Source: a virus
Strand: one strand, 5' to 3'
Length of the DNA: 43,206 nt
Virus genome (UHGV): UHGV-1355782
Shown here: piece after piece, positions 24,387 to 42,844 of the stretch
Position numbering within the stretch: position 1 is the first letter of the stretch
How the letters are laid out: each line of letters opens with the position of its first letter
Translations under genes and position numbers: made by a program
Notes under the pieces: generated by a model
What the model was told of the DNA's origin: nothing
Seen by the model: only the letters and a program-made list of their open reading frames with translations
The model's database searches: none

Positions 24387-24400
24387 CGTAAGAAGTGATT

Positions 24401-24424: not shown

Positions 24425-24561
24425 TACTCTTCAGGTAACTTCTCCAGTACAAACGCCAGTTGCGCATTAGCGGCGTCTCTTTGTTGCCGTAGCCGTAGAA
24501 CCTCTTCTTCAAGTTCCTTGATACGTTTTTGCAATGCTGGAATCGGGGCTATGATGTTCAT
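24424..24561 (-). CDS. hypothetical coiled-coil peptide (45 aa)
   Basis: ATGA coupling to upstream gene; same junction sequence TTCATTTCTTACCT as at 24739-24754. Confidence 0.3.
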   Translation of the reverse strand: MNIIAPIPALQKRIKELEEEVLRLRQQRDAANAQLAFVLEKLPEE

Positions 24562-24743
24562 TTCTTACCTTCGCTTTTCTTGAAACTGCGCTTTATGTCC
24601 GGCAGCGTGTAGCAGCGTGACTTTTCGTATTTACCGTCCGAGCTTACCAAAACAAAGCTGTTGCCGTCTTTCGATATGTACTCGATGGTGAAAGTATTGA
24701 ATGAGTGTATGCTGTATATCTCATCGCCAACATTAAGTTTCAT
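24558..24743 (-). CDS. hypothetical protein (61 aa)
   Basis: ATGA coupling to helicase stop; RBS GAGGTAAGAA. Confidence 0.45.
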   Translation of the reverse strand: MKLNVGDEIYSIHSFNTFTIEYISKDGNSFVLVSSDGKYEKSRCYTLPDIKRSFKKSEGKK

Positions 24744-26164
24744 TTCTTACCTCGTCTCTTCATGTAATTAAGCAATTCTTCCTGCACCGATTTCTTCTCG
24801 TCGGTACGCGCGGCAACAACCTCGTCCAGCGTGTCTTTAGCTACGATGTGATACAGGAACACCGGGCGCTCATGGCCTGCCTGTTTCTGGCGTACTGGGC
24901 CTATACGCTCGACAACCTGCAAATAGTGCTCAAGGTTCCACCCTTGTGAAATAAACGCCAGATGATGCCCGCCGTCCTGTAAATTCAAACCATGCCCGGC
25001 TGATGCGGGATGCACACACAAAATCTCGATTTCACCGCGGTTCCACGCTTCCATCTGCTTATTGCCCTTAGCGCCTTTTGCAAACGCCTGGGCCTGTGGG
25101 AATCGCTTAAGGATACGCTCCAGTTCATGCTTGAACTGATAGGCCACCAGTAACGGCGCGCCCTGTAACTCCTCAACAATGGACTCCAGCGCATCCAGTT
25201 TCGTGTCGTGCACTTTCTCCCATTCTTTCGTTGCTTCACCATCCGGCCCGGACACATATACGGCACCGGATGCAATCTGCAAACACTTCGACGTCTTCGC
25301 CGCTGCGTTAGCCGCTTCAACTTCCCCGCTCTCAAGTTCAGCGAATAACTTCTCCTCCATATCGATGTACGCCTGACGTGCTTTCTTCGGCAGGTCAATT
25401 TCCACCGGCACGATAATAGGTGCTTCACAACCGAACCACTCGGCAGCATCAATCGTAAGACTGATGTCCTTCATCTTCTGGTGAATCTCATTATCAGCAC
25501 CAGGGCGGGCATGGTACTCACGCGCCATAGCCGATTTGCCTTTCTGTACAGAGTTAAACCATCGGTCGGTGAATGCCGTGTATGAAGAACCGAGGCGCTC
25601 GCCAGCGTCAATAAACCAGTTCTGCCCCCACAAGTCTTTGAGGCCGTTCGGCGACGGTGTTCCCGTAAGGTTTATCAGCCGCTTAACATTTCTAAATGCT
25701 ACTTTACTAAGCGCCTTTGCCCTCTTGCTCCCGCCAGAACGGCTACGGTACGATTTCAACTTTGTACTTTCATCGTTAACTATCACAGTAAAGGGCCAGT
25801 CATCTACCCCGTAATAGTCGATAAGCCACTCTATAACCTCATAGTTAATACAAATTACATTAGCGTCTGACTCCAGCGCCGCGATGCGGCGCTTCTCTGA
25901 ACCGGTAGCATCGACGACACTCAGGCATGGGAAATTCCATTTCTCTTGTTCTGCTGGCCATGTGCCAGACGCAACACGTAACGGGGCGAGGATTAACACG
26001 CGGTCCTCGTCATTAAGCTGCCCGTTTCGGAACAGTCGGTTTAATGCCCACAGTACGCTGCCAGTCTTCCCGGCGCCCATGCTTGCCCATATGTTGCAGC
26101 GATGGTGTTGCAACATGAACGAGGTCATGAGTTTCTGGTACTCGCGTCTTTGAAACTTAGACAT
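24740..26164 (-). CDS. SNF2/DEAD-like superfamily 2 helicase
   Basis: Walker A MGAGKTGS, DExx box VNDEST; start at ATG 26164 with RBS ACGAGG (ORF track extends to 26287, overlapping the methyltransferase). Confidence 0.7.
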   Translation of the reverse strand: MSKFQRREYQKLMTSFMLQHHRCNIWASMGAGKTGSVLWALNRLFRNGQLNDEDRVLILAPLRVASGTWPAEQEKWNFPCLSVVDATGSEKRRIAALESDANVICINYEVIEWLIDYYGVDDWPFTVIVNDESTKLKSYRSRSGGSKRAKALSKVAFRNVKRLINLTGTPSPNGLKDLWGQNWFIDAGERLGSSYTAFTDRWFNSVQKGKSAMAREYHARPGADNEIHQKMKDISLTIDAAEWFGCEAPIIVPVEIDLPKKARQAYIDMEEKLFAELESGEVEAANAAAKTSKCLQIASGAVYVSGPDGEATKEWEKVHDTKLDALESIVEELQGAPLLVAYQFKHELERILKRFPQAQAFAKGAKGNKQMEAWNRGEIEILCVHPASAGHGLNLQDGGHHLAFISQGWNLEHYLQVVERIGPVRQKQAGHERPVFLYHIVAKDTLDEVVAARTDEKKSVQEELLNYMKRRGKK

Positions 26165-26840
26165 GATTAGCCTCGTAAACTGCTTTTGCGAAACCCCGAG
26201 GAGTAAGGCTGCGGATTGTTTTTGTCCGCACTGATTTACCGCCAAGTTTGTTGTGCTGGTCAGAATACCCATCACCCACGGCAACACCTGACTTAACCGG
26301 CATTACGAAACCATTACCCGTCCAAAGACATGTCTTTTTAGGGTACGCGTCTCGGGGTTTTATGTATTCAGGGAACATTGGATGCGTATCGTCTTCCGGT
26401 AGATAGCCGCCGTATTCGTAAGGATTGAACACATAATCGGGCTTACGCCACAAAGACGAGAGGACGCTAACTGGGTTCTCAATCATATAAGGTACGTTAT
26501 ACCTTTTAGCCAGGCGTGCCGCCACTTTGCATGTGATAACAGCCTCTACCTGAAACGTTGGGTTCTTCTTACGCTTCGTTTCGAAATGCGCCGCGCCACT
26601 AACGGCTAAATCTGTGCAAGGAGGGAACGCAAAAATAATATCTGGCGAAACCTCGAAGTCGAACTTATTATCAATCCACGCGTTTATATAGTGGATGTTC
26701 TCGTGTTCAACTTTTGCGCCCAATCGCGCGTAGTCGCCGTGGTCGGCACCATCGTAGTTGAAACAATAGCAAGTATGGCCCGCTTCTGCCCACGGTTGGG
26801 CCATAAGGCCCGAACCGTCAAACAATGACCAGACAATCAT
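26157..26840 (-). CDS. DNA cytosine-C5 methyltransferase (putative)
   Basis: motif I FDGSG, motif IV FPPC, ENP motif MIENPV. Confidence 0.65.
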   Translation of the reverse strand: MIVWSLFDGSGLMAQPWAEAGHTCYCFNYDGADHGDYARLGAKVEHENIHYINAWIDNKFDFEVSPDIIFAFPPCTDLAVSGAAHFETKRKKNPTFQVEAVITCKVAARLAKRYNVPYMIENPVSVLSSLWRKPDYVFNPYEYGGYLPEDDTHPMFPEYIKPRDAYPKKTCLWTGNGFVMPVKSGVAVGDGYSDQHNKLGGKSVRTKTIRSLTPRGFAKAVYEANHV

Positions 26841-27058: not shown

Positions 27059-27346
27059 CTAACTATAATAGTTCGCTATTAGGTCGTCAACCTGTTTAAA
27101 CGAACCAACGACAAAAACATTTGCTCCACGTTTACGCATCCGCTCGTGCTCTCGTAGCTGGTGTGGGTCTGGCTTCGTGTTTTCGTCTTTCTTAACCTCG
27201 ACGAACCAGATGATGCCGCCGGGGAGAATTACCAGCAGGTCAGGAGCGCCCGCTCTATTTTCGTACGACAATTTGCGTACGAGGCCGCCGATAGCCTCGA
27301 ATCGCTCTTTTGCGTATTTCTGGATGCGCCCCTCAGGCGTACTCAT
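27059..27346 (-). CDS. VRR-NUC domain nuclease
   Basis: PD-(D/E)XK-type motif GAPDLLVILPGGIIWFVEVKK; C-terminus ...IANYYS encoded by the promoter/operator repeat. Confidence 0.65.
   Translation of the reverse strand: MSTPEGRIQKYAKERFEAIGGLVRKLSYENRAGAPDLLVILPGGIIWFVEVKKDENTKPDPHQLREHERMRKRGANVFVVGSFKQVDDLIANYYS
27062..27090 (-). promoter_or_regulatory. class-2 promoter TTGACG-N17-TATAGT with palindromic operator (27066-27081)
   Basis: minus-strand -35 TTGACG, 17-bp spacer containing TAATAG-cgaa-CTATTA, -10 TATAGT; lies inside the 3' end of the VRR-NUC gene. Confidence 0.5.
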
Positions 27347-27548: not shown

Positions 27549-29753
27549 TTACTTGGCATAACGCATCATCTCCGCGCCTTCTGCTACAAGAGGGAACCCC
27601 TCGGCCCACTCCGGCAATGCGCACATTAATTTTTCCAGTTCGGCCACCGTGTACTCAGGTGTGTCGGGAGTTTCACATACCAGTTCATCGTGTACCGAAA
27701 GCACGATGGGGTACCCGCCACCCTCAACATTAATCATCGCATACGCGAGTAAATCACGACACAACGCCTGGACAATGTTTTCGCAGGCTTTGCCGCCATG
27801 GGTGTACAGGGTAGTCCATTGGCGGGTTAACTGGTTTTCACCCTGATACTTGATTCGCACATCCGTGTTTACCCGTCCGCCTTCGTCTGTTTCCTTTGTC
27901 ACAGTCACACTAACGCCTATTCCTGGATACGAGAGGATACGGCCTGACGGCAGCTCCATACACAACCACCAACCAGGAACCTTCCTGCCGGATGAATCAA
28001 ATTCTACAGTACGCCATATACGGATAGCCCTTTCCCCATTCCTGCGCAAGTGTGCCCCCGCCCAAAATTCACGGCCAGGATTACGCACAGCGGCTAAAAT
28101 TCCGTCTTTAAGGTCGCGCCAGAACGCTACTGTTTCCGGGTGTGACTCGCGCCACATACGCTTGATAGCATCACAAGTACGCCATACTTTTTTATCAAGA
28201 ATATACGATGGCCTATCGTCCTTTTCACCTGGATGTGGGGGGCGCTTGGCTTCCTGGATGCGCGCCCATTCATATCCTCTCGCGGTAGCGGCCCAGATGT
28301 GGTCAGGGAAAGTCCCGTCCATTGTTTTTGCCATCTCAATAAGGTCAAGACCTAAGTTTTTAGCAAACGTAACGAACGCTCCGACACCCCCCTCGTAGCC
28401 GAGGCCCAGTTCGCAAGCCTTGCCTATCTGTCTGATTTCCTTAAAGTTTTTCTTAATATCGTCAGGGTCCATGCCAAACATCTTACCTGCGGTTACACAG
28501 TAAATATCCAGTCCGGCACGGAACGTATCGAGCGCGGTTTCTTCTCCTGCTAACCACGCTAACCCACGACCTTCGACGTTAGAGTAATCAGCTACGACAA
28601 ACTTGTGCCCGGCTTCCGGTATGATGCAGCTACGGACCGTCGATGCCGTCAGCTTGGCTACGTCAAATCGGCGGTGAGCACGACCCTTAAGTAACGCTGA
28701 AATGCCTTTATCCAGTTCATCATCATGATAGTACCCGCGGGCCAGGTTCTGCGGCTGAAAGCCTTTACCCGCCCACCGCAAAGTACGTTTTGCCCCGCCG
28801 TACTGTAAACAACCGCGGCGTCGGTCGTCCGACGAGCGGCCCAACAGCAGCGGGTTATATTTCGTTGACGCTGTGGACGCGGCCCCGAGGCGCATTTCGA
28901 TAATCGTGCGGGCGTCGTCAGGTAAATCATCGTCCACCAACAGGTCGTTAAGCGTCGACTTCTGCGCATTGTGTATGTGGTGCGCTGGGGCAAGTTCACG
29001 CAGAATCGGCAGAAAGTCTTTACCCGTAAGCGAGCCGCCGTATTTGCGTTGGGCTTCTTCCTGTAACTGTGCTTTGTGTTTCTCCACGGCTTCAATCGCG
29101 GCTTCCGCCAGTGCAACGTCAACCTTAAACCCACGGTCATTGATTAACTGGTCCAGTTCCAGTACACGGTCTTCAAACTCAGAGTTACCCCACCGCGGAA
29201 GCTTATGGAAGACTTCACGCATAGCAGTAATGTCACTCACGGCGTACTTGATGAACAGCGCCCACTCGTCAGGGTGTGTTTCGGCGGTGTAGCGGCGAAT
29301 TTTGTAGTTCTTCGGTGTCGGTTTAGAGAAACGCTGAATCAGCGCCTTGCCGCGTTTGTCTTTCGCATTATCAGCGGACACGCCAAGCACTTCACACAGC
29401 GCATCAAGTGAACCTGGCAGCGCGTGACGAAACGCCCAAATCATCGTGTCAATGGTGTTGCTTACCGGTATATCGAAGCCCCAGCAGTGTTTCATGATTA
29501 GGCGATCGAACATTAAAAAGTTATGGCCCACGATTTTCATACGTCCACGCATAACATTACGGAGAGCCACACGGAGGCTTATCGGCATTACTGATTCGGA
29601 AGTGCAATCCCATACTTCTACAGGACCGTCATCAACGGCATACGTACAAATTATAACCTCTGTCGTTGGGTGCTCCGCATACGCATACGACCCGACTTTC
29701 TTTAAGTCTGCTTCGGAGAATGTCTCGGTATCCAGGTACAATAAACTAGTCAT
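27549..29753 (-). CDS. DNA polymerase, family A, with N-terminal 3'-5' exonuclease domain
   Basis: Exo I-like LYLDTETFS; pol motif A DYSNVEGRGLAWLAGEE; motif B RQIGKACELGLGYEGG; motif C VHDELV. Confidence 0.85.
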   Translation of the reverse strand: MTSLLYLDTETFSEADLKKVGSYAYAEHPTTEVIICTYAVDDGPVEVWDCTSESVMPISLRVALRNVMRGRMKIVGHNFLMFDRLIMKHCWGFDIPVSNTIDTMIWAFRHALPGSLDALCEVLGVSADNAKDKRGKALIQRFSKPTPKNYKIRRYTAETHPDEWALFIKYAVSDITAMREVFHKLPRWGNSEFEDRVLELDQLINDRGFKVDVALAEAAIEAVEKHKAQLQEEAQRKYGGSLTGKDFLPILRELAPAHHIHNAQKSTLNDLLVDDDLPDDARTIIEMRLGAASTASTKYNPLLLGRSSDDRRRGCLQYGGAKRTLRWAGKGFQPQNLARGYYHDDELDKGISALLKGRAHRRFDVAKLTASTVRSCIIPEAGHKFVVADYSNVEGRGLAWLAGEETALDTFRAGLDIYCVTAGKMFGMDPDDIKKNFKEIRQIGKACELGLGYEGGVGAFVTFAKNLGLDLIEMAKTMDGTFPDHIWAATARGYEWARIQEAKRPPHPGEKDDRPSYILDKKVWRTCDAIKRMWRESHPETVAFWRDLKDGILAAVRNPGREFWAGAHLRRNGERAIRIWRTVEFDSSGRKVPGWWLCMELPSGRILSYPGIGVSVTVTKETDEGGRVNTDVRIKYQGENQLTRQWTTLYTHGGKACENIVQALCRDLLAYAMINVEGGGYPIVLSVHDELVCETPDTPEYTVAELEKLMCALPEWAEGFPLVAEGAEMMRYAK

Positions 29754-30219
29754 GGCAATAAAATTCCTTATGCAGTTTTTCTCTTAATTTCTTTACAGCG
29801 CTTTCTGCTTCTTCAAGAGTTCCGTAGCTACCAGCGTTATAACTTTTGTAGTTAAAATGTACACGCCCATAAAACCGGTTGCCGTTTTTAACTACTCCCT
29901 TAACTCCCGTTCTAGCTCCCTTATTTTTAGCGTTTCGCACATTATCCGCTGTGGTTGCTTTCCTTAGGTTAGAAATCCTATTGTCTAACCTGTCACGGTT
30001 TATATGGTCAAGAGGCCCCTCAGGCCATTCGCCGTACTCGAAAAACCAAGCAAGCCTATGGGCCATGTAGTATCTACCCATGTAGGGTATGCGCCAGTAT
30101 CCGCTACTATTCATACATCCCGCAATGTCTCCGGGTCTCCCTCGTCTGTACGTAGGTTGTATCCATGTGAATATTCCGGTTTCTCGGTTATAACTAAGAA
30201 AATCTTTTATATGTTCCAT
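29746..30219 (-). CDS. HNH homing endonuclease with AP2-like domain
   Basis: HNH motif DHINRDRLDNRISNLR and AP2-like GVKGVVKNGNRFYGRVHF; start taken as ATG 30219 because the annotated TTG start at 30243 lies inside a terminator hairpin. Confidence 0.65.
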   Translation of the reverse strand: MEHIKDFLSYNRETGIFTWIQPTYRRGRPGDIAGCMNSSGYWRIPYMGRYYMAHRLAWFFEYGEWPEGPLDHINRDRLDNRISNLRKATTADNVRNAKNKGARTGVKGVVKNGNRFYGRVHFNYKSYNAGSYGTLEEAESAVKKLREKLHKEFYCHD

Positions 30220-30230
30220 TCTGACTCCGG

Positions 30231-30254
30231 TAAAAAGGCCCAATGAAGGGCCTT
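30231..30254 (-). terminator. rho-independent terminator (minus strand) after SSB-like gene
   Basis: minus-strand hairpin AAGGCCC-ttcatt-GGGCCTT followed by TTTTT. Confidence 0.6.
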
Positions 30255-30273
30255 AGTTAAATTGGTTCAGATA

Positions 30274-30900
30274 TTAACGGCGACGACGTTCGCGGCGCGG
30301 TGCTTCATCTTCTTCGTCGTCTTCCAGGTCCTCGACACTCGCAGCTACTTTAGAACCACCAAACGCTTTACCTTCACCAACGTACTTAATTGCCAGCAGG
30401 TTAACACCGAGTACTTTGTATTTCTGGCTGAACCAGATTTCAACGCTTACGTTAGCGACGCAGCCGCTGTAAACCTGTTCGCCTTCAATCTGTTCGCCGT
30501 CTACATTGAAATCCTGCTCTACCTGAGTCTCACCTTTTTTAGATGTTACAATCAGCGGTTGTTTCTGTGCCTTCGCTTTGAAGTAGAAGCCTTCAGGGAA
30601 GTCTTCAAACGGATTGTCACGCTCGGCAATATCTTTAATCGCGCATTTATCCATGTGCTTACCTTCGCCGTAGTTGGACTTCATCCATTTCTCGGCGGCG
30701 GCTGCACCTAACGCTTCTTCAACTACAGCGTAAACAGTGTCGTAGAGTGCGTCGATTTGAGCATGGCCAGACTGCAGGATGATAGTCGCGCTGTACTGGC
30801 CTTTAGTGATTGAGCCATCATCGTTTTCACGGTCTTTTTCGCGTTCAAATACGTTAACCCATGCAGTGTTTACTTTACGCAGATTTAATTTCAGTCCCAC
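30274..30900 (-). CDS. putative ssDNA-binding/recombination-associated protein
   Basis: acidic C-terminal tail VEDLEDDEEDE; own class-2 promoter; GTG start with RBS GAGGG; function inferred weakly. Confidence 0.35.
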   Translation of the reverse strand: MGLKLNLRKVNTAWVNVFEREKDRENDDGSITKGQYSATIILQSGHAQIDALYDTVYAVVEEALGAAAAEKWMKSNYGEGKHMDKCAIKDIAERDNPFEDFPEGFYFKAKAQKQPLIVTSKKGETQVEQDFNVDGEQIEGEQVYSGCVANVSVEIWFSQKYKVLGVNLLAIKYVGEGKAFGGSKVAASVEDLEDDEEDEAPRRERRRR

Positions 30901-30960
30901 AGTTCAGCCCTCATTAAGTTTAGATTTTAAGTTTACTCCGGGAACTGCCCGGCCAGTGAT

Positions 30961-31461
30961 TTAACTATAATAGTTCGCTATTCGGTAGTCAACTTCTTTT
31001 AGCAAATTACTTTCAAAATTCTTTCTCGCCACGTTAGCCTGTTCAGGAGTTTCGAATAGTCCAAGGTAACGATATTGCCCGTTTACGGTAATTCCAGCCT
31101 GCCATTTACCATGGCTTTTGCGCCAAAACACGCCAGTGTACCCGCTTTTGTTATGACTTCTTCCGGTTTGAATGCCGCCTTTAGCCACATTATCGCTATG
31201 AGCGATTAACTGGAGATTCTCTATCCTGTCATCATTTCTTATCGCATTTATATGGTCCACCTCAAACCCTTCAGGTATAGGGCCGTTGTGGTACTCCCAT
31301 ATTAAACGGCTTCTTTGGTAGGACTTACGATTAATGTAGATCTGCACATACCCTGAATGGTGGAGGCTTCCTGCCTCCTGACCAGCTAACATTCTTTTTG
31401 TATTGTGGCGATAGATTAGTTTCCCGTTTTCATAAATGAAACGCTCCCGAACTAAACTCAT
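30961..31461 (-). CDS. HNH homing endonuclease with AP2-like domain
   Basis: HNH motif DHINAIRNDDRIENLQL, AP2-like GYTGVFWRKSHGKWQAGI; ATGA-coupled start at 31461; C-terminus ...IANYYS. Confidence 0.7.
   Translation of the reverse strand: MSLVRERFIYENGKLIYRHNTKRMLAGQEAGSLHHSGYVQIYINRKSYQRSRLIWEYHNGPIPEGFEVDHINAIRNDDRIENLQLIAHSDNVAKGGIQTGRSHNKSGYTGVFWRKSHGKWQAGITVNGQYRYLGLFETPEQANVARKNFESNLLKEVDYRIANYYS
30964..30992 (-). promoter_or_regulatory. class-2 promoter TTGACT-N17-TATAGT with palindromic operator (30968-30983)
   Basis: same architecture as 27062-27090; lies inside the 3' end of the HNH gene 30961-31461. Confidence 0.5.
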
Positions 31462-32723
31462 TCCAAATCCTCCTCTGTTACCTGATTCCACTCAGGCCGT
31501 TTGTCATCTGCCGTTGTGACGCACGGCGCTCCTGGCTTACGAGTAATGAAGTCTTTCAGTTCTTCTTCCGGCACAACTTTAACAGCTTCGGTTGGCGTCA
31601 TGAGCACTACCTTTTGCAGCATAGTACCGTACTTCTCGAATACCGCATCAGTGTCTTTCCATGCACGATTACCCGGGCGACCTTCAACCAGCTTGTACCC
31701 CGGAACTTTCTTACCCGAATGCAGCGCGGCAGCCATAGCTTTCTCAACCTTGTCGATGTGCTGGCGCAACAACGGCAACTTCTCATACTCAGCTACGAGT
31801 TGCTCAGGTGTCATTTCAAGAGCAAAGTCGTCCTCCAGTTCTTCCGCCAGTACCGCGTTAACGGTTTTTGTACGCGCTGCGCACTGTTCTGAGAACCGAC
31901 ACCACTGACAACCATCTACCGACGGCTTGAAGTCCGACGCTTTCAGGTTCTTCTTACCGCGGAAATACGCATCAAGCGCTAACAGTGCGCGCTTCTGGGC
32001 GAACTTAGCGAACAGTTCCAGACCTTCAACCGAGATGTCCCACTCCGACGCACCGCCCGCGTACGGCTGGAAGATGACCAGACGAACGGTTGTTATGTTA
32101 TAACGTCTCTTGAGTCGGCGATAAACACCGAGAGCGTAAAGCATAAGCTGCTTGTTTTCTTTCGCTTCGACACGATGCCGTCCGGTTTTCAGGTCGCCGA
32201 TAATTAACATGTGCTCATCAGTGTTGGCCAGTTCCTGCACGGCAACAAGGTCAGCGGTTCCGAAGGTTTGAATTTCTTCTTGCCTCCCACCGGGGCTATG
32301 GATGTATCCCGGATGCAATACCTCAGTAAGATTGACACGCATTTCCAGCTTGGCGTAAGTCGCTACATCGATAATCGGTTTACAGTAGTCGGTATACTTG
32401 CGCACCTGCTCAATCATGTCAGCCGTAATCAGTACCGCACCTTTCATCGGACTGATTAGTGCCTTAATCTGTCCTTTACCCTCATCCAGCACGTACGCAC
32501 CGACTTCACGCTCTAACGGCAGCGCAGTGCCTTTGATGTACTGGTTTAGATGTACCTCAGCTATTGTGTGACACGCTGTCCCCGTAACGGCGGATTTACC
32601 CGACGTGTTAGGAATATCTTTTTCACAAGCCAGCGATGCGGCGCAACTTAGCCACTTCTTAGCGCCTGACGGCGACAGTAAAGCGTGTACGTCGTTATTG
32701 CCGCCGCGTTCCTTTAAAATCAT
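31458..32723 (-). CDS. PD-(D/E)XK exonuclease, Cas4/RecB-like with cysteine cluster (putative)
   Basis: LSPSGAKKWLSC N-terminal motif; D...IIGDLKTG nuclease motif; C-terminal CQWCRFSEQC; start ATG 32723 (ATGA coupling). Confidence 0.55.
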   Translation of the reverse strand: MILKERGGNNDVHALLSPSGAKKWLSCAASLACEKDIPNTSGKSAVTGTACHTIAEVHLNQYIKGTALPLEREVGAYVLDEGKGQIKALISPMKGAVLITADMIEQVRKYTDYCKPIIDVATYAKLEMRVNLTEVLHPGYIHSPGGRQEEIQTFGTADLVAVQELANTDEHMLIIGDLKTGRHRVEAKENKQLMLYALGVYRRLKRRYNITTVRLVIFQPYAGGASEWDISVEGLELFAKFAQKRALLALDAYFRGKKNLKASDFKPSVDGCQWCRFSEQCAARTKTVNAVLAEELEDDFALEMTPEQLVAEYEKLPLLRQHIDKVEKAMAAALHSGKKVPGYKLVEGRPGNRAWKDTDAVFEKYGTMLQKVVLMTPTEAVKVVPEEELKDFITRKPGAPCVTTADDKRPEWNQVTEEDLE

Positions 32724-32992
32724 ACCCTGTTCTCCCACTGGTCAATTAAATGTTGTGTCTGGTGCTGGCGGTGCATAGCCCATCCATACATCGACTCGAA
32801 GACATAAAAGTCAGGTTTGGCGAAAGTCGTGCGCTTAATCTGCGACACGTGACGGCCTATATCTTTAGGCCGCGGTACTTTGCCTAAGTACGCCATCTCT
32901 TCCATCTGGTGTGCACCGGACGGCGCACGCAACAGCCATATCGCCTCGGTGTTATCCCGCCTGTCGATGGCGCGGTATAGTTGATAAATCAT
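32720..32992 (-). CDS. hypothetical protein (90 aa)
   Basis: start ATG 32992 preceded by GAGGGTCGGAAAT, the same RBS box as gene 33004-33240. Confidence 0.45.
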   Translation of the reverse strand: MIYQLYRAIDRRDNTEAIWLLRAPSGAHQMEEMAYLGKVPRPKDIGRHVSQIKRTTFAKPDFYVFESMYGWAMHRQHQTQHLIDQWENRV

Positions 32993-33003
32993 ATTTCCGA
33001 CCC

Positions 33004-33240
33004 TCATTCAAAACTATCAAAGTCAAGTTCGTCCAGCATAGCCTCCGCCTCATCCGCTGCGGAAATAAGCGCTTTAGCAAGTTCTCTCGCCATATCAGGA
33101 GTATATTCCATGAACGAAAGCCCGTTCATCTCATCCGCAGGGTCGAAATCTAGGGTTACTCTTTTCTGCTTTCCCTGTATCGTGTTGCGAACCTCAAGGC
33201 TAACTCTGGCTTCATCGTTGTTAATATCTTTAATAATCAT
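33004..33240 (-). CDS. hypothetical protein (78 aa)
   Basis: RBS GAGGGTCGGAATT before ATG 33240. Confidence 0.5.
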   Translation of the reverse strand: MIIKDINNDEARVSLEVRNTIQGKQKRVTLDFDPADEMNGLSFMEYTPDMARELAKALISAADEAEAMLDELDFDSFE

Positions 33241-33283
33241 AATTCCGACCCTCAGTTAAAGCGACCCGAAGGCCGCGAGATAG

Positions 33284-33784
33284 TTATTCTTCTTCGAAAT
33301 ACTTGTTCTTGATTGCTGTCAGACGCTTCAGGTACTCGGCCAGGTCTTCGTCTTTAATCGCGGCAATCTTCATCTTCTTGCCGGTGAACTCTTCCAGCAG
33401 TTCATCGGAATCATCGCACGCGGCATCGCTCGGGCCTTCGTTAATGGCATCATCGATAGCCTGAATCTGGTCACGAAGAGACTGGTAATCTACCTCTTCT
33501 TTCACTTCTTCCGGCTCTGGCGTTGGTTCCTCTACTTTAGCTTTACGCGGCTTGCGTTTAGGCTTCTCGTCTTCTGTCGGTTTGGTGTCAACGACGTCTT
33601 CGCCTTCAACCGGGATTTCTTTTGTTTCTTCTTCGGCGCACTCGGCTACCGCTTCTTTGGTATACACTACCGTCTCTACTTCCATCGGTGCGGAAGCCTG
33701 AACAACTTGTTTCGCACTGTTCGCAGCAATCAGTTCATGCGCAACTACGAAACGTTCCAGTAATTTTAAGAATTGTTCTAACAT
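33284..33784 (-). CDS. hypothetical acidic protein (166 aa)
   Basis: RBS AGGAG; Glu/Lys/Pro-rich low-complexity centre; N-terminus MLEQFLKL paralogous to next gene. Confidence 0.5.
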   Translation of the reverse strand: MLEQFLKLLERFVVAHELIAANSAKQVVQASAPMEVETVVYTKEAVAECAEEETKEIPVEGEDVVDTKPTEDEKPKRKPRKAKVEEPTPEPEEVKEEVDYQSLRDQIQAIDDAINEGPSDAACDDSDELLEEFTGKKMKIAAIKDEDLAEYLKRLTAIKNKYFEEE

Positions 33785-33799
33785 TATTTGTTCTCCTGT

Positions 33800-34003
33800 T
33801 TATTTAGTTTCAATAATCTGTGCGTTTACTTTAGAAAGAAATTCTGATGTTATCCCGTGCTCTGCTTCGAATTTATCTGCGGTGAAGTCGTATGCCTTAA
33901 GAACGCCATTAACCCAGTTGAAGGTCATTGAAAATGGGTTGCCACCAATGAACCATACTGCAACGAACTGTTTTTCAGGTAATTTCAAAAATTTCTCTAA
34001 CAT
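33800..34003 (-). CDS. hypothetical protein (67 aa)
   Basis: RBS GAGAGGAGAGAA; first gene of leftward operon downstream of switch promoter. Confidence 0.5.
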   Translation of the reverse strand: MLEKFLKLPEKQFVAVWFIGGNPFSMTFNWVNGVLKAYDFTADKFEAEHGITSEFLSKVNAQIIETK

Positions 34004-34034
34004 TTGTTTCTCTCCTCTCGTTTGGTATTGGTTA

Positions 34035-34064
34035 ACTATAATAGCGAACTATTCATGTTGTCAA
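34035..34064 (-). promoter_or_regulatory. class-2 promoter TTGACA-N18-TATAGT with palindromic operator (34039-34054), leftward early promoter
   Basis: minus-strand consensus -35 TTGACA; operator TAATAG-cgaa-CTATTC in spacer. Confidence 0.55.
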
Positions 34065-34068
34065 TGGG

Positions 34069-34097
34069 CTTTTCTAAAATAATTAATATGGTACTAT
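34069..34097 (+). promoter_or_regulatory. putative rightward promoter for Cro-like gene with operator-like site (34084-34099)
   Basis: -10 TACTAT 34092-34097 preceded by TAATAT-ggta-CTATTC; poor -35. Confidence 0.35.
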
Positions 34098-34128
34098 TCA
34101 CGTATCAACTGACTAAGGAGTAACTGAC

Positions 34129-34344
34129 ATGCAACCATCAGAACTAGGTATCCGTGTAGAACAACGCCGCAAAGAACTCGGCATCTCCCAGCGTCGTCTG
34201 GCTGTCCTGGCCGGGGTTTCCCAGGGCGCGATTAACCAGCTTGCGCTCGGGGTAACTCAGGACGTCCGCCCGGCAACGCTGTTTAAACTGGCGGAAGTGC
34301 TGCAAGTAGATGCTAAGTGGCTGGCGTTCGGTGAAGGGGCTTAA
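34129..34344 (+). CDS. Cro/CI-type (XRE family) HTH transcriptional regulator
   Basis: HTH motif LGISQRRLAVLAGVSQGAINQLALG; RBS AAGGAG; divergent from early operon; followed by terminator. Confidence 0.7.
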   Translation: MQPSELGIRVEQRRKELGISQRRLAVLAGVSQGAINQLALGVTQDVRPATLFKLAEVLQVDAKWLAFGEGA

Positions 34345-34359
34345 CGCCCCTTTCTTTTT
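34334..34359 (+). terminator. rho-independent terminator after Cro-like gene
   Basis: AGGGGC-ttaac-GCCCCT followed by TTCTTTTT. Confidence 0.6.
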
Positions 34360-34555
34360 ATTGCACCTTTATCGGGTATCTTTTGCGAAACTTACCTAAC
34401 CCGCAGTACACGCTGTAAGCCTCTGTGTAACTGAACACAACATGATACCCGCGCCCATAAGGAACTACGTTAAGAACTTCTACTACTTCGCCTCTGTGGT
34501 TGGTGTATTTATTACCTTTCAGTTCGTCGCTTACTTCTTTAAATTTACCGCTCAT
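34358..34555 (-). CDS. hypothetical protein (65 aa)
   Basis: strong RBS AGAGGAGGATTTGGA before ATG 34555, identical to the junction upstream of HNH gene at 31461. Confidence 0.5.
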   Translation of the reverse strand: MSGKFKEVSDELKGNKYTNHRGEVVEVLNVVPYGRGYHVVFSYTEAYSVYCGLGKFRKRYPIKVQ

Positions 34556-36819
34556 TCCAAATCCTCCTCTGTCACTGTCAACATTTCATTCGGTTCGTAT
34601 ATTGTCTTCGGAATCTTGTTATCAGTTATTCGGGTGTTCAGCCTGTAACGACCAGGGATTATCTGATTGTTTTCGTCAGTACCCGGAACAAGATACCCGG
34701 CCTCAACCATTTTCTTAATCTTCCCGCGTTCTATAGCTTCTTTGGAGTTAAACGCCTTCGCGTTGGGGTCAGACTGCGCGAGCTTATTCGCTGCAGCTAC
34801 CGTGATGCCTTCGTTGCCGCTGTAGGTTCCTTCTGCCAGCTCAAACGCTGCCAGTATCGTGGCCTCCGAACTGTTGACGGCGTTCTCTACGGTTTTACGT
34901 ACGTTTTCTTTACCTTCCTTTGTCAGCCCTTCTTCCCGCTCTTTCTCCTCGTCAGTCTTGAACGGCTCGAAGCCCCACGGCATCAGCACAAGCGCCTTGT
35001 GCGGCTCAGGCAGGTCGAGGTTTACGATTGTGCCGTATTCCTCTGTGCTACCGATGAACTCAACCGCACGGTACTCTTTCGGCGGCGGTGCTTCACGGAA
35101 CTGTACCGACTCCAGCACCATGCCAACCGTCTTCTGTTGAGGCCCGTGCTTAAATTTAGAGTGATATACGTTTATCTGGCGGTCGGTTGCGCGTTCAATT
35201 GTCAGTTCCACGTCGACACCAGCATACAGCGCCCCACTGCCACGGGCTTTCTTTCCGCCTTTCGGCGTATGATGGACAACGCCTACCGCGGCTTTAGTCG
35301 CGTCACGCACTTCTTTAAGGATGGCGATAACTTTACCCATGCCGATTGCCGTTGATGAACTGTTCTCGTCGAACTTATCAATCGTCAGGGCCAGCGTCTG
35401 GTTTAGTGTGTCGAACGCGACCATGCCAATAGGTTCATCTCCCGCGGTTTCGCGCATTAGCTTAATCAGGCTCTTCAGTTTGCCGACCTCACCCATATCG
35501 ATGACGTGTACATAATCTTTACCTTCCACGCCGTATTTAGCCGCTAGTGCGTCGATACGGGTGCGCGTAGCGGCACCACCCTCACCGTCGATATAGAAGT
35601 GGTGGCAACGCTGGGTATCAGCCCCTGCGAACCGGTATCCCGCCGCGCTAAGGTACATCATACCCAGCGTATAGAACGATTTGTACGTGCCTGATTCCCC
35701 GACAATATCCCATATACAATCCGACGGCATGTACCCTTCAACGACGAAATCAGCCTTTACCGGTTCCGGTAACTCGTCCTCCTCTGAGTCATCCTCGTCT
35801 TCCAGGTCGTCAAGGCTGCATGAAACAGATTCACGCGCGCCCCACCCTATAGCCTCAGCCACTTCACTGAACGGCAGCCCGGTCGCATCACACGCGTATT
35901 TCCACACCTCTTTCGGTGACATGCCTTCGGTTGCCGTAATGTCGGTGTCGTGAATCATGGTTACGTTCGGCGCTTCGTACCCTTCACGCGGGAAACACAG
36001 CAGGAAGTCATCCGGGCGCGGCGTAGGGTCGCTGTAGTTCTCTGCGTGTTCCGGTGTAGCTGGCATCTTAAGGCCGCGCGGCGTCATGACGCCGCCGTAC
36101 TCAAACGCCAGCGCTTCGAACGCGTCTGTAAACGCTGTGCGCAGTTCTTCCGGTATCTGGTAATCCGATGCGCTGCTAACGTCAACGGCGGTGGCGCCTT
36201 CCAGTAATTCGTCCGGGTCAATCAGGTCGTTGCGGCGCGACCAGATAACCTGAGAGCCAACCGGTGGTAGGTACATCGGCTGCGACAGAGTAAACCCGCT
36301 GCGGTCCGCACCCATGCCTTTGAAGAAGTGTTCCAGCAATCCGTGGCGAACACGGATGATATCACCACCCTCAACCGGGCGGGCCAGCGGCATAACGACG
36401 CGAAAGCGCGGCGACTCATCGGTATGTGATGCCGTGGTGTAGAGACACATCGCCCGGCGGCTGCGATTAACCTGGCGCACCGCTTCCTGGTACTCTTCCG
36501 GTGTTGCACTGTCGAAGTCCAGATACGCCAGCGACGATTTGCTCACAGACGCGTCACAGCGATAGAAGAAGCCTTTACGCGCTTGTTTAAAGCCACCGGT
36601 TTCCGGGTCTTTTACGGTGCTGTGTGTAGAATCGCACGCGGCCGTGATATAACCGGCCGCAGTCTTGGGGTTAATCCCGTCACGAACGGCATCGAGCGGC
36701 TTGATTAGCTCTTTCAGGTCGTCCAGTGTTGCCGTGTGTGTGGTTCTGACGTTTATATCCTTTTTCTCTGCTCGCGCGTTGCGGCGTGACCACGAGTAGG
36801 ATAAAATTACATCGGACAT
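34552..36819 (-). CDS. primase-helicase (N-terminal primase-like region, C-terminal P-loop ATPase)
   Basis: 755 aa; Walker A GESGTYKS; RBS GAAGGAA; C-terminus ...VTEEDLE shared with exonuclease. Confidence 0.6.
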   Translation of the reverse strand: MSDVILSYSWSRRNARAEKKDINVRTTHTATLDDLKELIKPLDAVRDGINPKTAAGYITAACDSTHSTVKDPETGGFKQARKGFFYRCDASVSKSSLAYLDFDSATPEEYQEAVRQVNRSRRAMCLYTTASHTDESPRFRVVMPLARPVEGGDIIRVRHGLLEHFFKGMGADRSGFTLSQPMYLPPVGSQVIWSRRNDLIDPDELLEGATAVDVSSASDYQIPEELRTAFTDAFEALAFEYGGVMTPRGLKMPATPEHAENYSDPTPRPDDFLLCFPREGYEAPNVTMIHDTDITATEGMSPKEVWKYACDATGLPFSEVAEAIGWGARESVSCSLDDLEDEDDSEEDELPEPVKADFVVEGYMPSDCIWDIVGESGTYKSFYTLGMMYLSAAGYRFAGADTQRCHHFYIDGEGGAATRTRIDALAAKYGVEGKDYVHVIDMGEVGKLKSLIKLMRETAGDEPIGMVAFDTLNQTLALTIDKFDENSSSTAIGMGKVIAILKEVRDATKAAVGVVHHTPKGGKKARGSGALYAGVDVELTIERATDRQINVYHSKFKHGPQQKTVGMVLESVQFREAPPPKEYRAVEFIGSTEEYGTIVNLDLPEPHKALVLMPWGFEPFKTDEEKEREEGLTKEGKENVRKTVENAVNSSEATILAAFELAEGTYSGNEGITVAAANKLAQSDPNAKAFNSKEAIERGKIKKMVEAGYLVPGTDENNQIIPGRYRLNTRITDNKIPKTIYEPNEMLTVTEEDLE

Positions 36820-36877
36820 GTTGTATATTCCTTCAGCAAGTAATTTGGCCTCGGCGCTCTAACGTCGGGGCTTTCTT

Positions 36878-37168
36878 TTATCTTTTAGCCAGACATTCCA
36901 TCAAATGTGCGTACTTACGATAATAATCTGCGACAATCTCATCACCGAAATACTGATAAACGTAGGATAGGTGGTCGGAGACATCGATGGAAGCCGACAT
37001 TGTGCTGAGTCTTCGGAGACTAATCAACTGCAATTCTTCTGTAACGCAAAACGGCAAATATGAGTCCAGTTTACAGGAAACGTTGAAACACAACGCGTAT
37101 TCACCTTGCACTAAATAAACCATATAAGCATTGTCGTTCTCTTTATCGTGGAAAATTACACCTTTCAT
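36878..37168 (-). CDS. hypothetical protein (96 aa)
   Basis: RBS AAGGAG; ATGA coupling to upstream HTH gene. Confidence 0.5.
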   Translation of the reverse strand: MKGVIFHDKENDNAYMVYLVQGEYALCFNVSCKLDSYLPFCVTEELQLISLRRLSTMSASIDVSDHLSYVYQYFGDEIVADYYRKYAHLMECLAKR

Positions 37169-37472: not shown

Positions 37473-37584
37473 CTGAGCTTGTGAGATATCGCAAGCGACC
37501 GCGGAGCGGCAGGGAACGCAACGCGTGCCATTAGGCACTTGAGTGTAGTTCCGCTGACGCTTTCGGAAGGGTCAAAGTCTATTG
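37473..37584 (+). ncRNA. conserved promoter-proximal structured RNA element, copy B
   Basis: non-coding; aligns with 6254-6363 with compensatory hairpin change; followed by GC hairpin GGGGTGGGC-taac-GCCCACCC at 37670-37690. Confidence 0.35.
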
Positions 37585-37749: not shown

Positions 37750-37779
37750 TTGCGCACCCCAACCATAATAGGATACTAT
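37750..37779 (+). promoter_or_regulatory. class-1 promoter TTGCGC-N18-TACTAT with palindromic operator (37766-37781)
   Basis: upstream of first rightward small gene. Confidence 0.45.
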
Positions 37780-37813
37780 TCACTTATTGGAACGAGACAG
37801 AGGAGTGAGGGTT

Positions 37814-38753: not shown

Positions 38754-38787
38754 CAGGTCAATAGTTTACTATTTGGCTTTGTGACTT

Positions 38788-42546: not shown

Positions 42547-42692
42547 AAATCACAGATATAGAAGCATTCAAAGACGCACAACTGATGGCACGCATCGCCG
42601 TTAGTAACCTGAGCAACAGCATCCCGGCGGCCGCGTTCTGGTTCGCTGCGATGCAGACACTGAAAGCAGCTTATGCAGGAGAGAAGAAATGA
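42543..42692 (+). CDS. hypothetical protein (49 aa)
   Basis: ATGA coupling; RBS GGGGG. Confidence 0.35.
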   Translation: MKITDIEAFKDAQLMARIAVSNLSNSIPAAAFWFAAMQTLKAAYAGEKK

Positions 42693-42844
42693 GCGAACAA
42701 GGTCCAGTTAGCCAACCATTACGAGTAGGCCGTAAAGTCAGTCACACTCCGTTCCCGACACGTGAGGAACTGATGAAACGCAACAGTTTCCAGGGGCCAG
42801 ACAAGAACAAGTATCTCAATCGCATGTGGGGAGAGAAGAAATGA
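42689..42844 (+). CDS. hypothetical protein (51 aa)
   Basis: ATGA coupling; RBS CAGGAGAGAAGAA, same junction as next gene. Confidence 0.35.
   Translation: MSEQGPVSQPLRVGRKVSHTPFPTREELMKRNSFQGPDKNKYLNRMWGEKK

Follow-up and report, generated by a model that had tools for sequence, protein, structure and literature searches.

The sequence CTCATTCCAAATCCTCCTCTGT occurs twice, exactly, in the window (the whole stretch of 43,206 nucleotides analysed here, a Kagunavirus (Guernseyvirinae) phage genome) and probably reflects a conserved protein motif combined with ordinary gene coupling, and no dedicated recombination signal. In our reading, which we consider probable, this 22-nt repeat is the overlap of an acidic C-terminal tail shared by the Cas4-like exonuclease and the primase-helicase, of tail codons that spell a Shine-Dalgarno (SD) sequence, and of a narrow insertion space behind each gene, while the other repeats would represent a promoter/operator read through by two ORFs (the IANYYS pair) and duplicated initiation regions. 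The first-pass annotation had described five pairs of repeated junctions as modular boundary sequences that could mediate exchange or insertion of gene cassettes. All five pairs exist, with coordinates shifted by only 1–4 nt, and the comparison of relatives revealed cassettes present, absent or replaced at every boundary, so that the lack of variation named there as counter-evidence was not found; the observation was thus confirmed and its interpretation supported in part, whereas the TEEDLE pair proved to be no mobile linker.

The features considered in this work are listed in Table 1. The gene order in the window is exonuclease, optional HNH cassette, SSB, second HNH and PolA, with three HNH genes in total.

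Table 1. Coordinates of the genes, repeats and promoters discussed in the text (positions in the window)
Feature	Position	Strand	Remarks
61-aa optional ORF	24558..24743	-	Direct repeats of GGTAAGAAATGAA (copies of TTCATTTCTTACC) at 24557-24569 and 24739-24751
VRR-NUC nuclease gene	27059..27346	-	Name from annotation of relatives; own Pfam match 18.2 bits vs gathering cut-off 23.8
P_vrr, sigma-70-type TTGACG-17-TATAGT	27062..27090	-	Spacer dyad AATAGCGAACTATT; inside VRR-NUC 3' end, giving ...KQVDDLIANYYS-stop
Family A DNA polymerase (PolA)	27549..29753	-	Candidate tail partner
T7 gp2.5-like SSB (Enc34_ssDNA-bd / DUF2815)	30274..30900	-	Served by P_ssb; candidate tail partner (PMC5686142)
HNH_3 + AP2 endonuclease	30961..31461	-	Optional cassette after exonuclease; promoter P_ssb makes up the 29 nt preceding the stop codon
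P_ssb, sigma-70-type TTGACT-17-TATAGT	30964..30992	-	Spacer dyad AATAGCGAACTATT; upstream of SSB gene; HNH ORF reads through, giving ...KEVDYRIANYYS-stop
Repeat copy 1	31457..31478	-	Last 6 exonuclease codons and stop, SD GAGGAGG, ATGA overlap with HNH start codon
DUF2800 / PD-(D/E)XK (Cas4-like) exonuclease	31458..32738	-	Pfam PF10926 at 5e-66; ends ...EWNQVTEEDLE-stop
78-aa optional ORF	33004..33240	-	Direct repeats of translation-initiation region TGAGGGTCGGAAWWATGAT within 32987-33012 and 33235-33260
P_div, third promoter copy TTGACA-18-TATAGT	34035..34064	-	Dyad centre inverted; intergenic, divergent from HTH_3 regulator gene 34129-34344(+)
65-aa ORF	34358..34555	-	Optional cassette after primase-helicase; found in 10 of about 57 loci with readable primase-helicase end
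Repeat copy 2	34551..34572	-	Last 6 primase-helicase codons and stop, SD, ATGA overlap with 65-aa ORF start codon
Replicative primase-helicase (AAA_25)	34552..36819	-	Ends ...MLTVTEEDLE-stop
51-aa ORF	42689..42844	+	Flanked by GGAGAGAAGAAATGA; homology breakpoints of relatives fall at these junctions

On the minus strand the 22-mer reads ACA GAG GAG GAT TTG GAA TGA G, that is, T-E-E-D-L-E followed by a stop codon, and the same letters hold the SD sequence GAGGAGG and an ATGA stop/start overlap. The translation of both copies (24 of 25 bases identical when extended) agrees with the proposal that VTEEDLE is the common end of the exonuclease and the primase-helicase, and GAGGAGG and ATGA were found at both sites, as expected of a source of RBS and ATG for the HNH gene and the 65-aa ORF. 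An ATGA overlap whose SD sits within the preceding ORF is textbook architecture in bacterial and phage operons, and about 20 such overlaps occur in this genome. Both copies resemble it, with identical spacing (GAGGAGG-ATTTGGA-ATGA, the SD lying 7 nt upstream of the ATG) and with a coupling that is predicted from the sequence; unlike the textbook case, the SD is here written in the codons of a conserved acidic tail.

A set of 34 ATGA junctions was compared for stretches of identity ending right before ATGA, the null being obtained by shuffling each column (2000 shuffles). Anchored runs of 17 nt (TEEDLE pair), 11 nt (GGAGAGAAGAAATGA pair) and 9 nt (TTCATTTCTTACC pair) were retrieved, against a mean longest run of 5.4 in the null, where P(longest >= 9) was 0.0135, P(second longest >= 9) was 0 and 17 nt was never reached. 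Since the runs outdo this null, the repeat pairs exceed what position-specific RBS composition would yield by itself. Moreover, a 20-mer of the repeat had no match in 100 dinucleotide shuffles; pure chance as the source of the repeats is ruled out by the two kinds of shuffle.

The two enzymes were compared over about 90 related loci. In eight clades both of them end with the consensus [AVT]-[ST]-[DE]-x-D-L-(0–3 residues), kept with differing codons, in either gene orientation and with the downstream gene present or absent, and all the examined homologues of the two enzymes have a D-L dipeptide 0–3 residues from the stop. TEEDLE has four acidic residues out of six, with comparable values in the other clades. 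The exonuclease tail (e.g., VTEEDLE, VSEEDLE, VTEDDLEA, ASDEDLS, ATDEDLSNE and ATDSDLDD, each followed by the stop) persists in all the homologues, whose identity ranges from 96% to 45%; the homologues retrieved directly comprised relatives of at least 85% identity (nearly all above 90%), and deep conservation was assessed on 50%-identity cluster representatives, roughly the top 20 of which also keep the tail. The primase-helicase tail (VTEEDLE, TTEGDLE, ASDEDLNS, ATDDDLKD, ATDDDLAD, SEEDDLEN and ATYDDLE, again up to the stop) persists to identities as low as 30%, at which the gene lies on the opposite strand. In each locus harboring both genes, and among ORFs of 100 aa or longer, the regular expression [DE].[DE][LF].{0,3}$ singles out the exonuclease and the primase-helicase, the one extra match, in the window, being weak and in an unrelated ORF.

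Remote exonuclease loci were sought with a profile search, which retrieved mostly the same contigs plus six remote ones; L178 and L179 were without the tail motif. In remote loci a tail is common to the exonuclease and the DUF2815 SSB (DEDLSA/AEDLS, EDFS/EDFS and DEELF/DDDLG, respectively); the SSB of the window ends with the basic tail PRRERRRR, and SVEDLEDD is only internal to it. The conserved hydrophobic residue of the tails is a Leu at -2 to -4, or a Phe in some remote loci, and is not terminal. The codons of the tail vary from gene to gene and from clade to clade (AGT vs TCC for Ser in the two genes, and GAA GAA ... TAA in K1G) while the peptide stays, and selection therefore acts on the peptide. 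These data indicate that the peptide precedes the nucleotide repeat at the ends of the two genes and that it is native to both families. The idea of the repeat as a mobile linker between the two ends does not survive a peptide kept across eight clades without nucleotide homology.

The 3' ends of both genes are accessory-gene slots, empty in some loci: at least seven unrelated ORF families were found behind the exonuclease and at least five behind the primase-helicase, and a cassette family common to both slots was looked for in the fetched loci and not found. An exact scan of IMG/VR for a third context of the 21-mer ACAGAGGAGGATTTRGAATGA retrieved only the same Kagunavirus contigs and the two known contexts. 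The empty-site allele of the exonuclease end is GTTAGTGAAGAAGATTTGGAATAAAGTGTTGACA. All the Kagunavirus-type loci with a gap of 81–101 nt to the SSB gene have AGT GAA GAA ... TAA, and all the occupied ones have ACA GAG GAG (GCG GAG in Jersey) with TGA or TAATG. Hence, SD-type codons correlate with slot occupancy, the same peptide being written in an SD or a non-SD synonymous version according to the presence of a following ORF. Many Kagunavirus primase genes retain GAG GAG G even without a following ORF, and SD selection is therefore not the only factor behind those codons. In occupied loci the exonuclease allele departs from the empty one at the Val and Thr/Ser codons as well, which an SD could do without, and it matches the primase end at 21 of 21 positions; the two ends may have undergone gene conversion in the past, or the junction may have travelled together with cassettes.

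As for the HNH gene at the exonuclease slot, its HNH domain matches PF13392 at 8e-18, and its AP2 match (3e-5, 24.7 bits) lies under the gathering cut-off of 33.3. One other E. coli phage has a 98% match and a Cornellvirus group a protein 67% identical in the same position; phage Ivi harbors an unrelated HNH at this slot, and most relatives have none there. In contig L015 the cassette at the exonuclease site ends with ...KKEDLE and the stop, where 17 nt or more repeat the exonuclease end of the empty site; the insert is flanked by a direct duplication.

The repeat behind the IANYYS ends, TAACTATAATAGTTCGCTATT, lies at positions 27060-27080 and 30962-30982 (84% of 45 nt identical), and a third copy of the same type, with an inverted centre, at 34033-34053. 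Its description as a promoter/operator encoding a shared C-terminus of the VRR-NUC nuclease and an HNH endonuclease was found to be right: each ORF runs, in one and the same frame, through its own copy of a single sigma-70-type promoter/operator, and this is why both end with ...IANYYS. P_ssb, P_vrr and P_div are the best three sigma-70 matches within 26.9–34.5 kb, and the Jersey record annotates a promoter homologous to P_ssb. A co-variation of the operator centre (AATAG-NNNN-CTATT) with the regulator over the whole genome was rejected, each promoter position having its own usual centre (TTCG in P_div, TTAG in P_ssb and CGAA in P_vrr); the core of P_ssb in the window is of the P_vrr type. The IANYYS pair is a read-through promoter/operator and, in itself, no cassette linker.

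The three remaining pairs are short, adjacent and placed around small ORFs: TTCCGACCCTCA (32995-33006 and 33243-33254, inside a 26-nt repeat with 88% identity), TTCATTTCTTACC and GGAGAGAAGAAATGA (42678-42692 and 42830-42844). The relatives without the 78-aa ORF, and those without the 61-aa ORF, have exactly one junction copy each, which looks like the pattern left by a junction duplicated at insertion. The cassette idea holds best for these short repeats, because two of the three are single-copy in ORF-less relatives; most cassettes at the 24.7-kb slot show no duplicated junction. Repeat-mediated insertion, as proposed by the first-pass annotation, is therefore upheld in part, by the junction duplications of the 78-aa ORF, the 61-aa ORF and L015, and fails in that no family occupies both the exonuclease and the primase slots in the fetched loci.

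Among the alternatives, a recombination linker, that is, a junction homology that lets cassettes insert or exchange, also between the exonuclease and primase sites, seems unlikely to us. It would account for the cassette polymorphism at every repeat boundary and for the duplicated junctions just described (L015 included), and the P_vrr-type core of P_ssb hints at exchange between promoter copies. Moreover, the sites associated with occupancy all fall within the final 22 nt of the exonuclease gene (-22, -20, -19, -16, -13 and -2), the association being at most 0.47 further upstream; one left-junction allele, equal to the primase end, is found in all the Kagunavirus and Jersey cassettes; and the phage encodes an exonuclease together with a gp2.5-like annealase that can work on short homologies (PMC8093625). 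Nevertheless, the peptide tail is older than any cassette and conserved without nucleotide homology, no cassette family among the fetched loci is common to the exonuclease and primase slots, IMG/VR offers no third context for the 21-mer, and the duplicated junction is missing from most cassettes of the 24.7-kb slot. A small membrane ORF lies behind the exonuclease in several clades, so the occupied allele may be ancestral and the empty one a single derived deletion lineage; in that case the linkage between allele and occupancy may be explained without any linker function. A homing-endonuclease footprint, in which the clustered substitutions would be a cleavage-resistant target variant and the co-conversion tract of an HNH homing endonuclease, is quite improbable: an HNH_3/AP2 gene lies exactly at the slot with a sporadic distribution, and there are the two further HNH genes of the window, but this junction allele is also found with five non-HNH cassettes, and the primase slot, identical in sequence, lacks an HNH. 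The gene does recall the free-standing phage HNH homing endonucleases in its HNH_3 and AP2 domains, its sporadic occurrence and its place between conserved replication genes; unlike with those, the junction allele is not specific to HNH-bearing genomes, and homing is putative here.

Two further explanations concern the identity of the two gene ends. According to one of them, the exonuclease 3' end was overwritten by that of the primase-helicase in the Kagunavirus lineage, or the reverse, by gene conversion through the tail-coding homology. The 21/21 identity, which includes the Thr codon ACA, unneeded for the SD, the six clustered differences of the empty allele over 21 positions (vs a background divergence of about 10%), and the greater likeness of the two tails within a clade than between clades are in favour of it; we nonetheless hold it to be doubtful. 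In other clades the two tails differ in codons (Ser AGT vs TCC, and Thr/Asp codons in Dhillonvirus-like loci), and the within-clade likeness is therefore kept at the peptide level. Furthermore, once peptide, SD and ATGA are fixed, about three synonymous choices are left, with a chance identity estimated at about 0.05–0.1, and the TTG/TTA and ACA/ACC/ACT/ACG variants segregate independently at both sites. Very improbable is a pure convergence on an optimal translation-initiation region, with the shared C-termini as side effects and a functionless peptide. It suits the pairs ending with GKK and GEKK (GGT/GAG AAG AAA TGA, i.e., an SD followed by an A-rich spacer), and SD-type codons do track occupancy at the exonuclease slot; however, no column shuffle attained the 17-nt anchored run, and the tail is kept without a following ORF and without an SD (K1G with its GAA GAA ... 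TAA, wksl3, and the Dhillonvirus-like primase before non-coding DNA). For the TEEDLE pair convergence is largely refuted by a peptide conserved without an SD.

The explanation we favour, i.e., the overlap of tail, SD-spelling codons and insertion space, would work as follows. Both enzymes bear the conserved acidic tail, V-T-E-E-D-L-E in this phage, which would dock them onto a common partner, either the family A polymerase or the gp2.5-like SSB/annealase. The Glu-Glu-Asp codons GAG GAG GAT spell the SD 7 nt before an ATG overlapping the TGA stop, and an ORF directly behind either enzyme is therefore predicted to be translationally coupled to it. The neutral insertion space would be a few bases wide, extending from the exonuclease stop codon to the -35 box of the SSB promoter and, behind the primase-helicase, from the stop codon to a terminator; accessory ORFs would have been repeatedly gained, replaced or lost exactly in those spaces. 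With peptide, SD and ATGA fixed, the free positions would be the third bases of the Thr and Asp codons and the Leu codon, and with so few of them the near-complete nucleotide identity of the two sites is unsurprising. The three short adjacent repeats would be translation-initiation regions duplicated around inserted small ORFs.

The acidic tails of phage T7 carry a Phe at the very C-terminus. It is known that the tails of T7 gp4 bind basic patches on gp5 (PMC12593628) and that DUF2815 is a gp2.5-type SSB, the tail of the T7 counterpart contacting polymerase and primase-helicase (PMC5686142). The phage studied here resembles T7 in that two unrelated replisome proteins have similar short acidic C-terminal tails with a conserved hydrophobic residue, as gp4 and gp2.5 do, and in that its module also includes a gp2.5-type SSB and a family A polymerase (PMC5686142, PMC12593628). 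It differs from T7 in the second tail bearer, a Cas4-like recombination exonuclease and not the SSB, whose tail in the window is basic, and in the place of the hydrophobic residue (Leu at -2 to -4 vs terminal Phe). By analogy with gp4 and gp2.5, docking of the tails on a common partner is the most likely function, binding here being a prediction. The duf2800-gp2.5-polA set is a recognised conserved module (PMC8093625), the genes of which are found in the window; no description of the tail common to exonuclease and primase-helicase was found in the literature searched on DUF2800, Enc34 and Jerseyvirinae.

A second comparison can be made with the PeSL cassettes of T4-type phages (PMC2839356, PMC4122927) and with the "boundary/linker sequences" of modular phage evolution, where short regulatory repeats border optional small ORFs in hyperplastic slots. 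The inserts of the window likewise lie between direct repeats, and P_vrr, P_ssb and P_div resemble the PeSL idea. Unlike a PeSL, the TEEDLE repeat is part of coding sequence, owes its letters to a conserved peptide and has no promoter or stem-loop; moreover, the exonuclease and primase sites have no cassette in common among the fetched loci, and no circular intermediates are known. A composite unit of promoter and stem-loop is thus not what the 22-mer represents, and only the IANYYS repeat is a promoter/operator.

As a broader and tentative proposal, the [ST]-[DE]-x-D-L tail could be a docking code by which a single hub, PolA or the gp2.5-like SSB/annealase, recruits the Cas4-like exonuclease as well as the primase-helicase across the duf2800-gp2.5-polA module; its codons may favour the capture and expression of accessory genes, and its DNA may offer occasional microhomology for ectopic insertion, as in L015. 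If true, this would carry the T7 tail paradigm beyond replication, to a recombination nuclease, and would give a testable handle on the assembly of a very common phage replication/recombination module, the candidate interface being six residues long, on two enzymes, and co-varying between them across clades. The four precise and naturally tolerated insertion slots of Kagunavirus genomes may be useful for engineering, and identical C-termini or junctions in phage genomes need not mean recombination linkers, which calls for caution in annotation. Finally, an acidic tail acting as a ready-made ribosome-binding site, next to an insertion window a few bases wide, would offer a reason why accessory genes are found behind particular core genes.

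The exact 22-mer CTCATTCCAAATCCTCCTCTGT occurs at 31457-31478 and 34551-34572; on the minus strand it reads ACA GAG GAG GAT TTG GAA TGA G and encodes T-E-E-D-L-E-stop in both the Cas4-like exonuclease and the primase-helicase. Its GAGGAGG precedes by 7 nt an ATG overlapping the TGA; this ATG starts the HNH gene (behind the exonuclease) or a 65-aa ORF (behind the primase-helicase). The first-pass annotation had described this repeat as providing a shared C-terminus and the RBS and ATG of the next gene, which is confirmed; the four further repeat pairs it listed are all present, no more than 1-4 nt from the positions given. The 20-mer was matched in no shuffled sequence. The anchored identical runs at ATGA junctions (17, 11, and 9 nt) all exceed what column shuffling of 34 ATGA junctions leads one to expect (mean longest run 5.4; second-longest run of at least 9 in 0 of 2000 shuffles). 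ATGA coupling and free-standing HNH genes are themselves textbook features.

A megablast search with positions 30000-37000 matched 447 phage records, the best being Escherichia phage BEU33 (91.5% identity). Next came K1G-like Kagunavirus and numerous Salmonella Jerseyvirus genomes, 41-45 kb in length. These matches imply that the 43.2-kb window is essentially a whole Kagunavirus (Guernseyvirinae) genome, with a minus-strand replication/recombination block at 24.4-37.4 kb.

Coordinates of the features considered
Feature	Position	Strand	Remark
SNF2 helicase	24740-26287	minus-strand block	
VRR-NUC	27059-27346	minus-strand block	
Family A polymerase	27549-29753	minus-strand block	734 aa
HNH_3 endonuclease, first	13319-13792	minus	
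HNH_3 endonuclease, second	29746-30243	minus	first HNH in block
HNH_3 endonuclease, third	30961-31461	minus	second HNH in block
Enc34/gp2.5-type SSB	30274-30900	minus-strand block	
DUF2800/PD-(D/E)XK exonuclease	31458-32738	minus	
Small ORFs	within 24.4-37.4 kb		
HTH_3 regulator	34129-34344	plus	divergent
65-aa ORF	34358-34555	minus-strand block	
Primase-helicase	34552-36819	minus	
Promoter copy in VRR-NUC 3' end (P_vrr)	27090-27062	minus	
Promoter copy ahead of SSB (P_ssb)	30992-30964	minus	
Promoter copy divergent from HTH_3 (P_div)	34064-34035	minus	
Dyad copies	6125-6138, 15188-15201, 27067-27080, 30969-30982, 34040-34053, 37767-37780, 38760-38773, 39073-39086		
GGCCCC-loop-GGGGCC hairpins, then T-runs	5788-5822, 12897-12931, 24398-24432, 30233-30267		
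36-nt repeat	6119-6154, 15182-15217		94% identical
45-nt direct repeat	6319-6363, 37540-37584		91% identity

The window harbors three HNH_3 genes, two of which sit on either side of the SSB gene and are both missing from K1G; a 74-nt stretch of the first (13545-13618) shares 73% identity with 31214-31287 in the third. The polymerase of Salmonella phage vB_SenS-Ent2 (NC_023608.1) is annotated with an intein, absent from that of the window, so across the subfamily the replication module is host to selfish inserts of several kinds. The GGCCCC hairpins look like terminators at module boundaries, and the 45-nt repeat (TGAGTGTAGTTnCGCTGACGC...GTCTATTG) has its copies 31 kb apart.

In order to follow the C-terminal tail, about 90 related loci were compared (11 from GenBank records, 73 plus 6 from IMG/VR).

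C-terminal tails, each followed by the stop codon
Group	Exonuclease	Primase-helicase
Kagunavirus	VTEEDLE or VSEEDLE	VTEEDLE
Jerseyvirus	VTEDDLEA, VTEEDL, VTAEDLE	TTEGDLE or TTERDLE
Cornellvirus	ATDSDLDD	SEEDDLEN
Serratia phage Tsm2	ASDVDLA	ATYDDLE
Uncultured clade (exonuclease 50-56% identity)	ASDEDLS	ASDEDLNS
Dhillonvirus-like (exonuclease 46% identity)	ATDEDLSNE	ATDDDLKD or ATDDDLAD

The tail is found even in the uncultured and Dhillonvirus-like clades, whose primase-helicase genes show just 30% identity, are encoded on the other strand, and have non-coding DNA behind them. When ORFs of 100 aa or more are screened, the pattern [DE].[DE][LF].{0,3}$ selects the exonuclease and the primase-helicase in every locus having both genes; the window holds one further, weak match in an unrelated ORF. 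Codon choice varies from clade to clade and also between the two genes (for Ser, AGT versus TCC; the K1G exonuclease ends in GTT AGT GAA GAA GAT TTG GAA TAA), which indicates that conservation acts at the peptide level. These comparisons show the tail peptide to be older than the 22-nt repeat. It is kept in roughly the top 20 of 150 DUF2800-family cluster representatives (50% identity) and shades into acidic DF..DL-type ends in more distant ones. In four remote loci, the exonuclease and the DUF2815 SSB, in some cases along with further proteins of the module, have acidic hydrophobic-ended tails in common (e.g., DEDLSA/AEDLS, EDFS/EDFS, DEELF/EEDLF/DDDLG).

Conservation of the peptide leaves the identity of the nucleotides to be accounted for. 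With peptide, SD, and ATGA fixed, only the third bases of the Thr and Asp codons and the Leu codon are free, and TTG/TTA and ACA/ACC/ACT/ACG variants segregate at both gene ends; the probability that the two ends match by chance is estimated at ~0.05-0.1. Two discrete alleles exist at the exonuclease slot (the place directly behind the gene). The empty one, gtt AGT GAA GAA gat ttR gaa TAA agtgTTGACA, lacks an SD, has its stop 4 nt ahead of the -35 box, and is present in every Kagunavirus-type locus in which the exonuclease and SSB genes are just 81-101 nt apart. The occupied one, gta ACA GAG GAG gat ttR gaa TGA, or in other lineages its SD-bearing equivalent, is present in every locus with a slot ORF (gaps of 230-574 nt). 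In a per-site scan, the only sites associated with occupancy were -22, -20, -19, -16, -13, and -2 from the stop-codon end; at upstream sites the association was at most 0.47.

The Thr/Ser and Val codon differences between alleles are not needed for the SD, and many primase genes retain GAG GAG G with no ORF behind; hence, the match might reflect either a past gene conversion or the inheritance of one ancestral occupied allele, the empty one being a single derived deletion lineage. The latter is favoured, since several clades have a small membrane ORF behind the exonuclease.

The exonuclease slot is either empty or filled by at least seven unrelated coupled ORF families (a small membrane protein, ORFs of 67, 57, 60, and 84 aa, and two distantly related HNH endonucleases), and that of the primase-helicase by at least five (65, 104, 36, 135, and 191 aa) or none. 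No family was common to both slots among the loci compared, and in IMG/VR no third context of the 21-mer was found, the sequence being confined to these phages and its two known contexts. The window HNH has a 98% identical copy at the same position in Escherichia phage MirsaeidiM_Esher4 and a 67% identical relative, also directly behind the exonuclease, in Cornellvirus FSL SP-031; in both phages the -35 box lies within the HNH gene 3' end. The right-hand ends of all cassettes are within ~10 nt of the -35 box, several reusing the native TAA, so the slot is set by what selection tolerates, behind the functional tail and ahead of the promoter. One locus (L015:7200-7512, IMGVR_UViG_3300045988_026399) carries a 60-aa cassette whose end, KKEDLE, is encoded by a stretch sharing at least 17 identical nt with the exonuclease end of the empty allele; the tail-coding sequence is thus directly duplicated on either side of the insert, one version with SD and one without. 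This is the single direct sign that insertion or recombination has made use of the tail-coding sequence.

Overall, the modular-boundary interpretation is partly supported. The headline repeat is a conserved C-terminal tail written in codons that serve as SD for accessory genes in a very narrow permissive slot. A dedicated recombination linker, as the modular-boundary idea would have it, was rejected on the basis of peptide-level conservation and the absence of cassettes common to both slots among the loci compared. PeSL cassettes of T4-type phages resemble the present case in that junction and promoter repeats flank optional ORFs here too; however, the TEEDLE repeat departs from them in two features, being no promoter/stem-loop unit and having no cassette in common between its two sites (PMC2839356, PMC4122927).

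The modular-boundary idea best fits the three short adjacent repeats, which are a distinct phenomenon: initiation regions duplicated around inserted ORFs. Between the 166-aa and 90-aa genes, 26 relatives have a 42-43-nt spacer (terminator hairpin, TTTAACWGAGGGTCGKAAWT, ATG) and others one of at least six inserts; in the window, a 78-aa ORF sits between two copies of TGAGGGTCGGAAWWATGAT. Behind the SNF2 helicase, GAGGTAAGAAATGAACATCATA is coupled directly to a 45-aa gene in 12 relatives, and others carry one of at least seven inserts; the 61-aa type repeats GGTAAGAAATGAACATCATA at its 3' end, whereas most others have a different SD. At 42.5-42.85 kb, the relatives' homology breakpoints (query positions 163, 313, and 456-465) are gene junctions. 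The shared GKK and GEKK ends are side effects of SD, A-rich spacer, and TGA.

The IANYYS repeat, which had been proposed as a promoter/operator encoding a common C-terminus of VRR-NUC and HNH, is indeed a promoter: TTGAC(G/T)-17-TATAGT on the minus strand, with the dyad AATAGCGAACTATT in the spacer. Its three copies are the best sigma-70 matches in 26.9-34.5 kb, and homologous promoters are annotated in the Jersey phage record. VRR-NUC natively ends in ...KQVDDLIANYYS across Kagunavirus relatives and in ...KQVDKLIEHYYI in another group, with the promoter inside; the HNH reads through P_ssb in the frame that VRR-NUC uses at P_vrr, so the shared C-terminus is a promoter by-product. Dyad centres are position-specific in relatives (P_div TTCG, P_ssb TTAG, P_vrr CGAA). 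The P_ssb of the window has CGAA, as in MirsaeidiM_Esher4, and 16/18 of its core positions agree with P_vrr versus 13/18 for the usual P_ssb, a hint that promoter copies have undergone exchange or conversion in the HNH-bearing lineage. The dyad AATAG-N4-CTATT has eight copies, usually TGAATAG-N4-CTATTATA with a -10-like box overlapping it; three correspond to the early minus-strand promoters, and two are within the 36-nt repeat that precedes plus-strand late genes. A phage regulator, e.g., the HTH_3 protein, probably uses the dyad as its operator.

As for the tail, DUF2815 proteins are T7 gp2.5-type SSBs, whose tail in T7 contacts polymerase and primase-helicase (PMC5686142), and duf2800-gp2.5-polA is a recognised conserved module (PMC8093625). 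The acidic tails of T7 gp4 bind basic patches on the polymerase, and their removal lowers processivity (PMC12593628). By analogy, [ST]-[DE]-x-D-L is most simply read as a probable docking motif, which on the primase-helicase and the recombination exonuclease would be equivalent to the T7 tails, with PolA or the SSB/annealase as a possible hub; the exonuclease would be an unusual carrier. Location, acidity, sharing between proteins, and peptide-level conservation agree with T7. Two caveats apply: T7 tails have a terminal aromatic residue, whereas here the conserved hydrophobic residue is not terminal, and the window SSB ends in ...SVEDLEDDEEDEAPRRERRRR, with an internal EDLE-like stretch and a conserved basic end. 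In loci L001-L080 of the comparison, the SSB C-terminus of every clade consists of an acidic run and then a basic end, APR(R/K)(E/R)RRRR, that is strongly conserved, although phage SSB tails are not usually basic at the end; the SSBs of Kagunavirus and Jerseyvirus contain an internal AS(V/T)xDLEDD resembling the exonuclease/primase tail. No description of the shared tail was found in the literature searched. The testable novelty is a T7-like tail shared by two enzymes of a widespread phage module, the primase-helicase and a Cas4-like exonuclease.
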